From contig JADKBN010000002.1 in assembly GCA_016715065.1 (NCBI GenBank), positions 212,286 to 276,285 on the forward strand: a stretch of 64,000 nt of DNA, read 5' to 3'. The stretch is from Fibrobacterota bacterium (GTDB lineage: Bacteria; Fibrobacterota; Fibrobacteria; UBA5070). A model generated the notes under the pieces. The model made no database searches and was not told where the DNA came from. It saw nothing but the letters and a program-made list of their open reading frames with translations. Positions 15,802-20,157 of this stretch are shown one piece after another. Numbering within the stretch: the stretch's first letter is position 1; each line of letters begins with the position of its first letter. A program made the position numbers and the translations under genes.

Positions 15802-16782
15802 TCAATCCCCGCCGCCGCCTCCACATCCACCGCAGCCTCCCCCGCCACCCCCGCAGCCGGAGTCTCCACCGCCCCCACCGCCGCCATCGGAAGATCCGCC
15901 CCCGCAACCGGAATCGGAGCTGCTGGAAGACCATCCGCCGTCACTGCTGCCCGAACTGCTGGAGAATGCACTGGAAGCGGCCGGAGGGTTCATCCACAGG
16001 GGACTGGTGGCGATGGCGATGCCGGCCAGGGGTATCGCCGCGCCCCACATGGATCCGGACAATTCCTGGAACCCAAAGACCGAAGTCATGAAGGGGCGCG
16101 CATCGGCGCGGGTCCGCGAGGCTTGGGCATCGAACAGGAGTGGCTCCAACGCCCGGCGGCGGTTCGCCACGCAACGCCGACCAGCTGGGGTGGGATGGCC
16201 CCGGCGCCCTCTGGCGACCAGGCTGACCACGAGGACTCCCGCGATGACCAAAATCAGGAAGATGAGGAATCCGGCGGGCTTGTTGTAGGTCAGGGCCAGG
16301 GAAAGCTTCATGATGGCCAGGACTTCGATCGTTCCGAAGATGGCCAATCCGCGCAAGGCGACTTGGCCGGCAGTGGAACGATCCAAGAGGCCGGCGTCGA
16401 TCAGATCGGCTCGCAATACCTTGATCGATTCCGTCAATTTCAGTCCGTGCAGCGAGCCTCCGAGTTCGCCCAGCTCCTTGAGGAGTTCGGCCAGGATGGG
16501 GTCGTCGGGACGAGCGGATGGAAGGGGGATCGCAGGGCCGGTGGAGGCATCCACCTGGATCAGTCCATTGGCGTCGGCGGCGGCCAAAGCCGTCTCGATC
16601 ACCCCTCGGGGACCACGGGCCAAATAGGCCAATTCGTACGGGGTCAGCCGCATCTCCACGACCGGAGAGACGCTGCCAGGACCGCGACCGCGGAAGAAAT
16701 GGAAATAGATCCCCAGACCTGTCAGTCCGACAATCAGGAACAGGAAGAGGGGCCCGGGAATCATGCGCAGAGGTTCGAGCAT
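15802..16782 (-). CDS. TIGR04222-like membrane protein with a Gly/Ser/Cys-rich C-terminal tail (copy 1)
   Basis: N-terminal TM MLEPLRMIPGPLFLFLIVGLTGLGIYFHF; second TM FLIFLILVIAGVLVVSL; tail ...SDSGCGGGSSDGGGGGGGDSGCGGGGGGCGGCGGGGGD. Confidence 0.65.
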   Translation of the reverse strand: MLEPLRMIPGPLFLFLIVGLTGLGIYFHFFRGRGPGSVSPVVEMRLTPYELAYLARGPRGVIETALAAADANGLIQVDASTGPAIPLPSARPDDPILAELLKELGELGGSLHGLKLTESIKVLRADLIDAGLLDRSTAGQVALRGLAIFGTIEVLAIMKLSLALTYNKPAGFLIFLILVIAGVLVVSLVARGRRGHPTPAGRRCVANRRRALEPLLFDAQASRTRADARPFMTSVFGFQELSGSMWGAAIPLAGIAIATSPLWMNPPAASSAFSSSSGSSDGGWSSSSSDSGCGGGSSDGGGGGGGDSGCGGGGGGCGGCGGGGGD

Positions 16783-16809
16783 GGCACGAAAGTTAGGAAA
16801 GGGAGGTCA

Positions 16810-17793
16810 TCAATCCCCACCACCACCACAGCCGCCGCATCCCCCGCCTCCACCTCCGCAGCCGGAATCCCCGCCGCTGGAGCCACCCCCGCAACCGGAA
16901 TCCGATGAACCACCCCCGCAACCTGAATCTGAGCTGGTTGACGAACTTTCCCCGCCAGATCCGCTGCCGGAGGGCGGGCTTTGGGCAGGGGCGTGTGGGT
17001 TCAACCAAAGGGGGCTGGCGGCGATGGCGATGCCCGCCAGTGGAATTGCCGCGCCCCAGAGGGAAGTGGAAATTTCGTGGAATCCGAACACCGCAGTCAT
17101 GACGGCGCGTGGGCCGGGTTGGGTGCGGGCGGCTTGGTGGTCGAAAAGCAGGGATTCCAATGCGTGTCTGCGATCGTTCAGACAGCGACGACCAGCCAAG
17201 GTGGGAAATCCCCTCCGTCCCTGGGCCCATAGACTCAAGCCCAGGAATGCGAGGATGACCAGGGCCAAGAGGAACAGGAATGTGACGGGCTTGCCGAGAT
17301 GGAGCCCAAGGAAAAGTTTCGCGAGAGCAAGTCCTTCGAGTGTGCCGAAGATCGCAAATCCGCGCAGTGCGACTCTGCCGGCGCTGGCGCCATCCAGGAG
17401 TCCGCATTGTGTTAGGCTCCTTCGCACCGCATGGACCGACGATGACAATTTCAGTCCGCGCAAGGAGCCGCCGAGCAGGGTCAGCTCCCGAAGAAGTTCC
17501 GCGAGAACTCGATCGTCAGGGCATGCATCGGGGAGGGGGATGGCAAGCTTGGTTTCCGCATCCACTTCGATCAATCCATCGGCGTCGGCGGTCGCCAGGG
17601 CGGTTTCGATCACCCCGCGACGGCCCCGTGCCAAGTAGGCCAGCTCGTAGGGCGTCAGTGACATTCCTCGATCGGGGTTGGCTCGACCAGGCCACCAAGG
17701 TCGGTAGAAATGGAAATAGATCCCCAGACCTGTCAGCCCGACCAGGATCAGCAAAAACAAAGGCCCGGGGATCATGCGGAGGGGTTCGAGCAT
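16810..17793 (-). CDS. TIGR04222-like membrane protein with a Gly/Ser/Cys-rich C-terminal tail (copy 2, tandem paralog)
   Basis: Internal ATG at 17793 gives MLEPLRMIPGPLFLLILVGLTGLGIYFHF; tail ...SDSGCGGGSSDSGCGGGSSGGDSGCGGGGGGCGGCGGGGD; same ~30-bp 5' leader as copy 1. Confidence 0.65.
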   Translation of the reverse strand: MLEPLRMIPGPLFLLILVGLTGLGIYFHFYRPWWPGRANPDRGMSLTPYELAYLARGRRGVIETALATADADGLIEVDAETKLAIPLPDACPDDRVLAELLRELTLLGGSLRGLKLSSSVHAVRRSLTQCGLLDGASAGRVALRGFAIFGTLEGLALAKLFLGLHLGKPVTFLFLLALVILAFLGLSLWAQGRRGFPTLAGRRCLNDRRHALESLLFDHQAARTQPGPRAVMTAVFGFHEISTSLWGAAIPLAGIAIAASPLWLNPHAPAQSPPSGSGSGGESSSTSSDSGCGGGSSDSGCGGGSSGGDSGCGGGGGGCGGCGGGGD

Positions 17794-18823: not shown

Positions 18824-18831
18824 AGGTGAAG

Positions 18832-20157
18832 TTACCGCAACACCTTCAGCAGGTGTTCCACGTCGTTTCGCAGGGTCACGGAGTCCTTCATTTCCTTGCC
18901 GACCTTGTCGCAAGCGTGGATGACGGTGGAGTGGTCGCGGTCGCCGAAGTGTCCGCCAATGGACTTGTAGGGCAGTTGGGTGAGCTGTTTGGCCAGGTAC
19001 ATGGCCACTTGGCGGGCGTGGCTCACATCCTTGGTGCCGCGGTTTTCGGCAAACAGGCTCGGGGATTCCACACGGTAGTAGTCGGCCACCACCTGGGCGA
19101 TTTCCTGCGGCGAAAACCGACGCGTGGATCCGCGCGGTGCTTGGGCCTCCACCACATCCTGCGCCAGGCGCAAGGTGACGTTGCCGCCCTGGATGCTGGC
19201 CTCCAGGATCAGGCGGCGCACGATGCCTTCCAGGTGGCGGATGTTGGTGTCGATGTTCTCTGCGATGTAGGAGATGATCTCTTCGGAGAGATCCAGGTTT
19301 TCTTCCTGGGCTTTGTTGCGCAAAATGGCTTCGCGGGTGTCTCGGTCGGGCGGCTGGATGTCCACCGAAAGACCCCACTGGAAGCGGCTCACGAGCCGTT
19401 CTTCCAGGCCCTGCAATTCGCCGGGCGAGCAGTCGGAGGTCAGTACGATCTGGCGGTTTGACTGGTGGAAGGCGTTGAACAGATGGAAAAATTCCTGTTG
19501 CAGCGCGTCGCGTCCCACCAAAAACTGGATGTCGTCCATCAACAGCACGTCCACCTGGTTTCGATAGTAGCTGGAGAAATCGTTGACCAGGTTTTTTTGG
19601 ACGTGGTAGATGTACTGGTTCTTGAAGTCGTCGGTGGGAACGTACCGCACCCGGATTTCCGGGAATCGGGTTTCGATCTGGTTGCCGATCGCTTGCAGAA
19701 GGTGGGTCTTGCCCAGTCCGGATCCACCGTAGATCATGAGCGGATTGAAGCGCGTCCGTCCGGGAGCGTCGGCCACCGCTTTGGCAGCCGAATGCGCGAA
19801 CTGCGAGTTGCCACCCACGACGAAGGTATCGAACGTGAAGCGCGGGTTCATCAGCACCGGCGCGATTTCGCCGCCGCGTGGCTCGGGGCTGGCTTGCAGC
19901 ACCGGACGGCTCTGCTGCAGAGATAGCCTAGGTGTGGAGCCCACGGTTTGTTCGGCGGCCATTTCCACCAGGCCCTGGAAACTTTTGCGGAAGGCTTCCA
20001 GAGGGAAGTCGGCGGGAGCCTCCAAAATCAATGAGGTCTGGGAAAATTCCAGGCATCGCAACGGAGCGATTTGGCGCGCATGGACTTCCGGAGCCAACAT
20101 GCGCTGCAGGACTCCCGCGGCCTTCGCCCAGAGGATGGAAGATTCGGACCCGATCAT
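18832..20157 (-). CDS. dnaA: Chromosomal replication initiator protein DnaA
   Basis: Start at MIGSESSILW (ATG 20157); AAA+ motifs GGSGLGKTHLL and LLMDDIQFL; C-terminal DNA-binding helix-turn-helix ...VSHARQVAMYLAKQLT...HSTVIHA. Confidence 0.9.
   Translation of the reverse strand: MIGSESSILWAKAAGVLQRMLAPEVHARQIAPLRCLEFSQTSLILEAPADFPLEAFRKSFQGLVEMAAEQTVGSTPRLSLQQSRPVLQASPEPRGGEIAPVLMNPRFTFDTFVVGGNSQFAHSAAKAVADAPGRTRFNPLMIYGGSGLGKTHLLQAIGNQIETRFPEIRVRYVPTDDFKNQYIYHVQKNLVNDFSSYYRNQVDVLLMDDIQFLVGRDALQQEFFHLFNAFHQSNRQIVLTSDCSPGELQGLEERLVSRFQWGLSVDIQPPDRDTREAILRNKAQEENLDLSEEIISYIAENIDTNIRHLEGIVRRLILEASIQGGNVTLRLAQDVVEAQAPRGSTRRFSPQEIAQVVADYYRVESPSLFAENRGTKDVSHARQVAMYLAKQLTQLPYKSIGGHFGDRDHSTVIHACDKVGKEMKDSVTLRNDVEHLLKVLR

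Follow-up and report, generated by a model that had tools for sequence, protein, structure and literature searches.

Pairing of a radical SAM/SPASM enzyme family with cysteine-studded membrane-protein tails: a candidate tail-modifying system

The closest described counterpart of the system considered here comes from a 2025 survey of MNIO (DUF692) enzymes, in which 40% of the Cys-containing proteins that lack a signal peptide and are encoded just before an MNIO gene belong to the membrane-protein family TIGR04222 (PMC12452194). The Ser/Gly/Cys tails of these proteins were predicted to be periplasmic and the whole proteins were proposed as MNIO substrates; the bufferin MNIOs form thiooxazoles from Cys, and a third of the TIGR04222-bearing genomes have no MNIO (PMC12452194). 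The survey, which is the only substantive literature on TIGR04222 that we found, makes no mention of a radical S-adenosylmethionine (radical SAM, rSAM) partner. Among rSAM/SPASM enzymes, SbtM converts a Gly-Cys motif into a thio(seleno)oxazole, with hydrogen abstracted from the Cys beta-carbon (PMC9204691). Here we describe a 64,000-nucleotide stretch of DNA from a Fibrobacterota bacterium (assembly GCA_016715065.1, contig JADKBN010000002.1, positions 212,286 to 276,285; hereafter the window), in which an rSAM/SPASM gene is followed by two TIGR04222 genes whose products end in Gly/Ser/Cys tails. From a comparison of sequences and gene neighborhoods we propose, with a probability of roughly 0.68, that the enzyme modifies the tail Cys of the neighboring membrane proteins and that the modified tail stays attached as a functional appendage, the role of which is probably metal binding (of copper, for example) or redox chemistry.

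The enzyme and the tailed proteins beside it

On the minus strand of the window the order is dnaA, the rSAM/SPASM gene and two TIGR04222 paralogues, separated by gaps of 8, 10 and 27 nt; the gene order and the last two gaps are exactly as the first-pass annotation of this DNA had given them. The rSAM/SPASM gene (17804-18823), which we propose to encode the tail maturase, specifies 339 residues from a TTG start, and the deposited NCBI record for the enzyme is named simply 'radical SAM protein'. The upstream paralogue (16810-17793; 327 residues) starts 10 nt after the rSAM stop codon, and 27 nt separate its own stop codon from the downstream paralogue (15802-16782; 326 residues); both are proposed substrates. 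The dnaA gene (18832-20157; PF00308 at 206 bits, PF08299 at 86 bits), whose stop codon lies 8 nt before the rSAM start, is context and stands outside the rSAM-tail system.

The enzyme belongs to the SPASM subgroup of the radical SAM superfamily. It matches PF04055 at 69.1 bits (cut-off 29.5), the SPASM model PF13186 at 25.3 bits (cut-off 21.5) and TIGR04085 at 30.7 bits (cut-off 27), the last over residues 244-329. The CX3CX2C motif (C19-x3-C23-x2-C26; 18746-18769, minus strand), which binds the SAM-cleaving 4Fe-4S cluster, is invariant in an alignment of 34 homologues, as are seven Cys of the SPASM region (C244, C262, C298, C301, C307, C313 and C329; 17834-18094, minus strand), the site of the two auxiliary clusters; the SAM-binding GGE motif reads T69-G70-G71-E72. 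The Fe-S/SPASM signature on which the first-pass annotation had based its classification is intact on this alignment, and the enzyme is predicted to be cytoplasmic and to carry three 4Fe-4S clusters. With seven SPASM Cys in place of eight, one auxiliary cluster may have a coordination site left open. In CteB-type SPASM enzymes an open auxiliary-cluster site takes the Cys thiolate of the substrate, and by analogy the seven-Cys arrangement suggests that a substrate thiolate could be held in the same way here. Since the rSAM core starts at about residue 8, there is no room for a RiPP recognition element (RRE; RiPP, ribosomally synthesized and post-translationally modified peptide), and we regard the enzyme as one without an RRE.

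Among the 25 of 44 NCBIfam matches listed, no equivalog reaches its cut-off for the window enzyme and no anSME model appears. The best match is TIGR04340, the rSAM of the ACGX system (102.3 bits against a cut-off of 400); the ScmE model scores 83 bits and the SbtM model TIGR04082 scores 82.6 bits (cut-off 350), with profile positions 201-515 aligned to enzyme residues 11-329. The SPASM region gives weak matches, far under the cut-offs, to QhpD (TIGR03906, 32.7 bits) and PapB (40.1 bits). An AlphaFold model of the enzyme, with a predicted local distance difference test (pLDDT) score of 92.2, has SkfB, SuiB, anSME, CteB, TigE, ChlB and PqqE as its top Foldseek matches, such that the closest folds are all those of SPASM/twitch enzymes that modify peptides or proteins, and the best global superposition is with anSMEcpe (template modelling score 0.76 by query and 0.72 by target). 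A phmmer search against the PDB gives weak matches to SkfB, which comes first, and to PqqE, and does not tell these chemistries apart.

The enzyme is one member of a large family. A profile search of 1.84 billion representative sequences yields at least 150 clusters at 50% identity with E<=1e-74, which databases label 'radical SAM protein' and sometimes 'AlbA'; the latter is a misannotation. Three proteins of about 560 residues (P0149, P0169 and P0183) match the rSAM profile at E values of about 1e-103 to 1e-113 and carry an extra C-terminal extension of about 220 residues with Cys motifs of its own (e.g. ...CISCNYLVRGQCSCF); these probably represent a distinct subfamily with a built-in partner domain.

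The two paralogues match TIGR04222 at 76.7 bits (upstream copy, profile positions 1-224 of about 229) and 78.0 bits (downstream copy, positions 1-207) against a cut-off of 43, with which all of the family assignments in the first-pass annotation, rSAM/SPASM and TIGR04222 alike, stand above their cut-offs. The downstream copy is 100% identical to the NCBI record P0087, 'TIGR04222 domain-containing membrane protein'. The Gly/Ser/Cys tail of the upstream paralogue (16813-16992, minus strand; C-terminus SSDSGCGGGSSDSGCGGGSSGGDSGCGGGGGGCGGCGGGGD) holds three DSGCGGG units and 5 Cys and ends CGGCGGGGD. That of the downstream paralogue (residues 264-326; 15805-15993, minus strand; C-terminus SSDSGCGGGSSDGGGGGGGDSGCGGGGGGCGGCGGGGGD) holds two such units and 4 Cys and ends CGGCGGGGGD. 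The two to three repeats reported earlier are thus three and two, and both tails terminate in CGGCGGGG(G)D, also as reported. In translation, Gly precedes every Cys of both tails; C317 and C320 of the upstream tail, together with their flanking Gly, vary little or not at all among 57 partner tails from the loci described below. No sulfatase motif (C/S-x-P/A-x-R) was found in these tails: there is no Pro-x-Arg or Ala-x-Arg after a Cys, and Arg is absent.

An AlphaFold2 model of the downstream paralogue (pLDDT 76.8) places transmembrane (TM) helices at residues 10-29, 138-165 and 171-192 and a weak one near 246-264, and residues 264-326 fall below a pLDDT of 50 and form a disordered tail; no solved structure resembling the body of the protein was found. 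For the TIGR04222 partners in general, hydropathy and the positive-inside rule place the short N-terminus outside and, after TM1, a Lys/Arg-rich loop of about 110-145 residues inside; a tight hairpin of TM2 and TM3 leads to a second Lys/Arg-rich inside loop, of about 30 residues, and the weak TM4 leads to the tail, outside. Their tails have 0-1 Lys/Arg, the downstream tail of the window none. The tail is accordingly predicted to lie outside the cytoplasm, behind TM4, in agreement with the published periplasmic prediction (PMC12452194). Because TM4 is weak, this placement of the tail is tentative.

The paralogues are 66% identical in protein and 71.6% identical in DNA, and share the 29-nt start region TTTCCTAACTTTCGTGCCATGCTCGAACC, which is read from the sequence at 17783-17811, spanning the start of the upstream paralogue, and again at 16772-16800, at the start of the downstream one (both on the minus strand). 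Judged by their sequences, the two genes arose by tandem duplication, and the identical 29 nt around both starts indicate that the duplication took in the translation-start region. In the sister genome CP064986.1 (locus L083), the first paralogue (P0094; 11137-12006; 283 residues, 46% identical) ends ...SEGEEAWTPSHID with no Gly/Cys tail and the second retains its tail; a third close relative (L003) has a single copy, and in the window both copies are tailed. Copy number and tail retention therefore vary between close relatives.

Partner tails across genomes

The arrangement found in the window recurs in many other genomes. The family alignment, searched against a single genome for each species, gave 80 loci, to which L001, L002 and L083 were added; 70 of these count as loci of the family by tblastn score (about 148 bits or more, with L076 admitted at 113 bits). 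By identity, the rSAM homologues separate into a small set of close relatives from Fibrobacterota (75-89%) and a large set at 30-40%. An open reading frame (ORF) with a Cys-containing Gly/Ser tail flanks the enzyme in 57 of the 70 family loci, mostly on the same strand and directly upstream, its end usually no more than about 50 nt from where the rSAM gene starts; at a further family locus (L013) the tail DNA is cut off by the end of the contig. None of 13 more distant rSAM loci has a flanking Cys-tail ORF, and beyond about 1.2 kb from the enzyme a single other such ORF was found in 771 kb of flanking DNA. At the first two distant homologues, one of them in Chitinispirillum alkaliphilum, a protein of about 310-320 residues ends 3 nt before the rSAM gene and terminates in ...CGGCGGCGGCGGGCGGCD or ...CGGGCGGCGGD. 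Paired loci occur in Fibrobacterota, Clostridium ljungdahlii/autoethanogenum, many Ruminococcus, Bacteroidales, Thiomargarita and other Thiotrichales, Desulfobacterota, Syntrophobacter, Verrucomicrobiales, Planctomycetota, Armatimonadota and an archaeon. Clustering of the ORFs within 3.5 kb of the enzyme at 71 loci revealed no other conserved gene, neither protease nor exporter, which argues that the product is not a released peptide. The proposal in the first-pass annotation that the enzyme would act on a protein tail and not on a free peptide draws strong comparative support from the 57 of 70 loci.

The partners are proteins of 300-700 residues and are built on three scaffolds: 26-28 of the 57 are TIGR04222 proteins, about 16 are DUF2207 proteins (PF09972 with PF20990) and 9 are TPM proteins. 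The expectation that the rSAM gene would be found beside TIGR04222 genes elsewhere was correct in many genomes, and as a description of the partner it holds for about half; DUF2207 and TPM proteins with Cys tails were not anticipated by it. As the same tail is carried by three unrelated scaffolds, it is the sole element that the partners share, and it is conserved in the homologous loci rather than being a mere local linker. Tails have 2-10 Cys (median 6), regularly spaced at 3-4 residues with 3 dominant. Of 309 tail Cys, 308 are preceded by Gly or Ser (Gly 198, Ser 110) and 305 are followed by one or the other. TIGR04222 tails end ...CGGCGG(G)D/N/G, DUF2207 tails ...CSSCSSCGGGGAD and TPM tails ...CSSCGSGGSSSF, and one partner tail weakly matches TIGR04117. 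We considered whether the tails might be a by-product of G+C-rich DNA and rejected this, as they are found in genomes of 29-72% G+C, with CGG tails at 40% G+C, and the use of Ser versus Gly does not follow the G+C content of the locus (rho -0.16, p=0.23).

Two further features touch on the pairing. P0249, of 851 residues, joins in a single frame a DUF2207-like protein with the tail ...CFGCTGCSACGGCGSCGGCSSCG and an rSAM/SPASM domain (residues 529-845), and is either a Rosetta-stone fusion or the result of a missed stop codon. In addition, many deposited enzyme models start too early (P0014, P0019, P0023, P0029, P0037, P0052 and P0060, for example), with 'VVAVEAVV' N-termini and runs such as 'VVAVEAVVVAVV'; these spurious N-termini are the upstream Cys/Gly-tail DNA read in another frame, and as such the annotation error doubles as a marker of the pairing.

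Tails of the same kind occur beside MNIO genes. Searches for TIGR04222 homologues, which reached 8 and 34 relatives, found CGGCGG-tailed TIGR04222 proteins adjoining MNIO (PF05114) genes in Nocardia, in Nonomuraea and on a metagenome contig, and the MNIO-paired tails at L085, L086 and L088 end ...CGGGGCGGCGGG or ...CGGGCGGCS. No MNIO was found in the 83 rSAM loci (L001-L083; tblastn, E<=1e-4), and three MNIO proteins searched by tblastn against the 64-kb window gave a single 46-residue match (E=0.006) inside a rhodanese gene; no rSAM of this family is present in the MNIO loci. The two enzymes are mutually exclusive at the level of the locus. Since the same tails lie beside MNIO genes elsewhere, the rSAM looks like an alternative maturase, with one type of tail served by two unrelated classes of enzyme, each of which has a member that makes a Cys 5-thiooxazole (the bufferin MNIOs and SbtM).

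Searches of NCBIfam r20, Pfam and the open-access literature did not find the system, a description in a subscription journal being possible; in open-access text we found nothing that links DUF2207 with radical SAM, and nothing relevant to SPASM enzymes and low-complexity Cys-rich membrane proteins beyond PMC12452194. The earlier remark that no described system was known to pair TIGR04222 proteins with a dedicated rSAM/SPASM enzyme appears to stand; the idea of TIGR04222 Cys tails as enzyme substrates is not new, as they had already been proposed as substrates of MNIO (PMC12452194). The pairing of an RRE-less rSAM/SPASM family with the Cys-studded tails of membrane proteins is thus widespread, apparently undescribed, and parallel to that of MNIO with TIGR04222.

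Subsets of the loci contain additional genes. Nine share a nucleotidyltransferase-like protein of about 250 residues (G-S...D-x-D motif, no Pfam match), encoded directly before the TIGR04222 gene (L006, 5959-6774; homologues in L018, L025, L027, L035, L050, L053, L054 and L064), which may have an accessory part in some of the systems and is not present in the window. At the TPM/rSAM loci, the gene for the tail protein is invariably preceded by one for a conserved protein of about 545 residues that begins with a zinc-ribbon-like motif (MIHCPSCGSGL...); it lies at 2495-4123 in L008, and seven more loci of the Ruminococcus type have homologues.

Proposed chemistry, competing explanations and genomic context

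In the sequence of events that we propose, the tail would leave the ribosome into the cytoplasm, where the enzyme would bind the Cys units with their small flanking residues, probably with the Cys thiolate on the open auxiliary-cluster site; the 5'-deoxyadenosyl radical would then abstract hydrogen at or beside each Cys, and the modified tail would remain on the membrane protein, probably flipped to the outer face behind the weak fourth TM helix. Several observations weigh against this proposal. With a cytoplasmic enzyme and a tail predicted to be extracytoplasmic, modification has to precede translocation. There are precedents for this order of events in anSME and QhpD, and the bufferin MNIOs likewise act before translocation (PMC12452194). 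Furthermore, about 13 of the 70 family loci have no adjacent tail gene, the first paralogue of the sister genome has lost its tail, and in one case (P0112) a Cys-tailed TIGR04222 protein is encoded with no rSAM or MNIO gene in the vicinity. The enzyme sequences do group by the scaffold type of their partners; this grouping is confounded with taxonomy. Without question, adjacency alone does not prove the relation of an enzyme to its substrate.

As to the product, our tentative preference, held at somewhat short of even odds and by analogy with known enzymes, is that each Gly/Ser-Cys unit would become a heterocycle of the 5-thiooxazole type. This is favored because of the substrates shared with MNIO enzymes, the invariant small residue before the Cys, and the precedent of SbtM. 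The similarity to SbtM itself is weak, at 82.6 bits against a cut-off of 350, and since it is no better than that to the ACGX-system rSAM or to ScmE, enzymes whose chemistry is not known, it does not discriminate between possible chemistries. A broader and more speculative possibility, which we hold to be doubtful though worth stating, is that of a tail-anchored, RiPP-like class in which RRE-less rSAM/SPASM enzymes would be the O2-independent counterparts of MNIO enzymes and would build arrays of poly-thiooxazole, or of other Cys-derived groups, on the three scaffolds. Were this so, anaerobes and microaerophiles would bear membrane-tethered surface arrays, metal-chelating or redox-active, and two classes of enzyme would have converged on one type of substrate.

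The alternative that survives best, although we consider it unlikely, is that the enzyme is a thioether crosslinker, which would bond each Cys through its sulfur to a nearby Gly or Ser at the alpha carbon (or to a different carbon) and draw the tail into a compact, rigid polycyclic knot. The thioether-formers SkfB (with the top E-value, 3e-16) and CteB (5why) are among the Foldseek matches, SkfB is also first in the phmmer search of the PDB, and the seven-Cys SPASM domain implies an open auxiliary-cluster site for a Cys thiolate, as in CteB. The Cys spacing of 3-4, moreover, resembles that of nested-ring precursors (SCIFF, Cxxx-repeat and ACGX-repeat), and the best NCBIfam match is an ACGX-system rSAM. 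Against this, the known sacti- and ranthisynthases have an RRE and act on leader-peptide substrates, both of which are missing here, and many tails offer Gly or Ser as the sole possible acceptors. A thioether product would also leave unexplained the presence of the same tails beside bufferin-like MNIOs, which make heterocycles and not thioethers.

It is improbable, in our estimation, that the tail is not a substrate at all and instead binds a metal or Fe-S cluster itself, with the membrane protein as an anchor, donor or sensor and the rSAM acting elsewhere, upon a lipid, a cofactor or the envelope. Cys-Gly-Gly repeats could chelate metals without modification, and the rSAM loci that have no adjacent tail gene (about 13 of 70), the tail-less TIGR04222 paralogue kept in the L083 operon, and the absence of an MNIO from a third of TIGR04222 genomes (PMC12452194) would all be accommodated. 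Anchoring, however, gives no ready account of why the tail alone should be conserved across three unrelated scaffolds. The predicted topology also puts tail and enzyme on opposite sides of the membrane, Cys-modifying enzymes of two unrelated classes lie beside the same tails, the closest folds are all those of SPASM enzymes that modify peptides or proteins, and no small-molecule pathway genes are conserved nearby.

Still less credit can be given to a crosslink between Cys and the side chain of Asp (or Asn/Glu) within the D-S-G-C units, of the kind found in ranthipeptides and made in QhpC by QhpD, for which the first-pass annotation had offered Asp-x-x-Cys as the unit. The two to three DSGCGGG units and the C-terminal Asp of the window tails, the terminal Asp in 24 of the 57 partner tails, and the weak SPASM-region matches to QhpD and PapB are in keeping with it. 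Most partner tails, however, consist of nothing but CGG or CSS repeats and lack an internal Asp: at L001 the tail has 11 Cys in CGG repeats, with one Glu and an Asp at its terminus, and CSS repeats make up the DUF2207 and TPM tails. In 33 of the 57 the tail ends otherwise than in Asp, and the QhpD and PapB scores are far under their cut-offs. As internal Asp is not conserved, a Cys-to-Asp crosslink is unlikely as the chemistry of the family; we have rejected Asp-x-x-Cys as the functional unit, and regard it as a local feature of the window, the conserved element being the Gly/Ser-flanked Cys.

A replication-linked or housekeeping role, with the rSAM gene standing in the place of dnaN after dnaA, is scarcely credible, for although the dnaA-rSAM gap is just 8 nt and the order is kept in three genomes that differ upstream of dnaA (window versus L083 and L003), dnaA adjoins the rSAM gene in those three close relatives alone, other phyla carry the rSAM-tail pair in unrelated contexts, the three DnaA proteins are 97% identical where the rSAMs are 77-89% identical and hence under different constraints, and cumulative GC skew has no turning point at dnaA in the window. 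The dnaA-rSAM-TIGR04222 order occurs in the window, L083 and L003 and at no other locus, and is thus a lineage-specific synteny of three close Fibrobacterota genomes and not part of the system; the position after dnaA, which the first-pass annotation had singled out, was rejected as meaningful on this distribution. The TIGR04222 proteins of the three genomes are 67-86% identical. Over about the first 50 kb of the window the cumulative GC skew increases steadily, with no minimum at dnaA, and dnaN is not beside dnaA; the replication origin of this organism is therefore probably not beside dnaA.

At the other end of the operon, 18 nt past the last stop codon, lies a perfect 13-bp G+C-rich palindrome with a 3-nt loop and no T tract (15756-15784; arms GTAGAGACGCCCC-GCC-GGGGCGTCTCTAC), which is unique in the 64-kb window, with 0 chance matches expected. 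It likely marks the 3' end of the transcription unit and may act as a terminator or as an RNA-stability hairpin. A promoter and terminator consensus scan of the region gave terminator-like sites at chance level (6, against 5.0 expected from shuffled sequences), all within coding sequences and none in an intergenic gap from dnaA to the end of the operon, and is uninformative as to the transcription units. Immediately beyond the operon, the window encodes a secreted-looking protein of about 420 residues (14417-15676, minus strand; 7135-8442 in L003) without a Pfam match, the middle of which is repetitive and the C-terminal part of which includes a conserved coiled-coil segment (...VADYVFEPGYKLAPLAEVEAYTKEHKHLPEIPSA...). 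In L083 no gene of that size occupies this position, where just an 80-residue ORF lies between the TIGR04222 genes and a convergent gene. Farther downstream, the window and CP064986.1 have in common the order rhodanese (PF00581, two domains), then RecC-like and UvrD/RecB-like genes (4071-10635 and 11903-12757, minus strand); the presence of a sulfurtransferase, the rhodanese, about 3 kb from a Cys-modifying system may be coincidence.

Significance and comparison with described systems

If our proposal that the enzyme modifies the tails is correct, a substrate and a purpose can be assigned to a large family whose members now bear the name 'radical SAM protein' or, mistakenly, 'AlbA', and Cys chemistry of the RiPP type would reach beyond free peptides to integral membrane proteins, whose C-terminal tails would be missed by atlases restricted to short precursors. 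It would provide the first functional handle on the Gly-rich tails of TIGR04222, DUF2207 and TPM proteins, very common families of unknown function. It would also imply an aerobic/anaerobic pair of enzymes acting on the same tails, MNIO requiring O2 and the rSAM being oxygen-sensitive, and so predicts a thiooxazole product. As Clostridium ljungdahlii and C. autoethanogenum carry the pair, tractable hosts for a direct test are at hand.

Among known systems, the sacti- and ranthipeptide maturases and their relatives (AlbA, SkfB, CteB, PapB and QhpD) resemble the window enzyme in being SPASM/twitch rSAMs that act on Cys-rich ribosomal substrates, and SkfB and CteB are among its top matches. QhpD, in addition, crosslinks a protein subunit before export. 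The sacti- and ranthipeptide maturases and QhpD differ in that their NCBIfam models give 37-40 bits here against cut-offs of 300-850, and the sacti- and ranthipeptide systems in that the present loci have no RRE, no leader, and no conserved protease or ABC exporter. Haft's ACGX-repeat (TIGR04340) and TIGR04117 systems come closer in layout, with an rSAM/SPASM gene beside a low-complexity target whose Cys are spaced at 3-4; their targets, however, are short stand-alone peptides, unlike the C-termini of 300-700-residue membrane proteins, and the match of 102 bits compares with a cut-off of 400. To our knowledge the chemistry of the ACGX-repeat and Cxxx-repeat systems is not known, and our search of the literature on ACGX, TIGR04340 and TIGR04117 found nothing relevant.

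anSME (PDB 4K39) is the best global structural match, of the same size, with an rSAM core and SPASM domain and no RRE, and modifies a Cys or Ser while its full-length target protein is still in the cytoplasm, ahead of export. The two enzymes are nonetheless only about 15% identical, anSME modifies one residue compared with the 2-10 Cys of a tail, and here the sulfatase motif is absent and there is no adjacent sulfatase gene. SbtM, acting on SbtA, likewise is an rSAM/SPASM enzyme with three clusters whose target Cys/Sec follows Gly, just as Gly or Ser precedes the tail Cys here; the Gly-Cys of the window tails is a likeness of the target site only and does not by itself make for membership. At 82.6 bits against 350 the window enzyme is not a member of the SbtM family, and the N-terminal ~200 residues of SbtM are missing from it. 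SbtA, moreover, is a short separate (seleno)peptide where the proposed substrates here are tails of membrane proteins, and SbtM is restricted to Geobacter and Desulfobacteria.

The nearest parallel remains the pairing of MNIO with TIGR04222, in which a TIGR04222 Cys tail is likewise the putative substrate, its gene adjoins that of a Cys-modifying enzyme, and neither leader nor signal peptide is present. It differs in the nature of the catalyst, which in the window is an oxygen-sensitive rSAM/SPASM enzyme of anaerobic type and in the MNIO systems an O2-dependent non-haem iron enzyme of unrelated fold, and in the range of partners, as the rSAM family of the window also serves the DUF2207 and TPM scaffolds.

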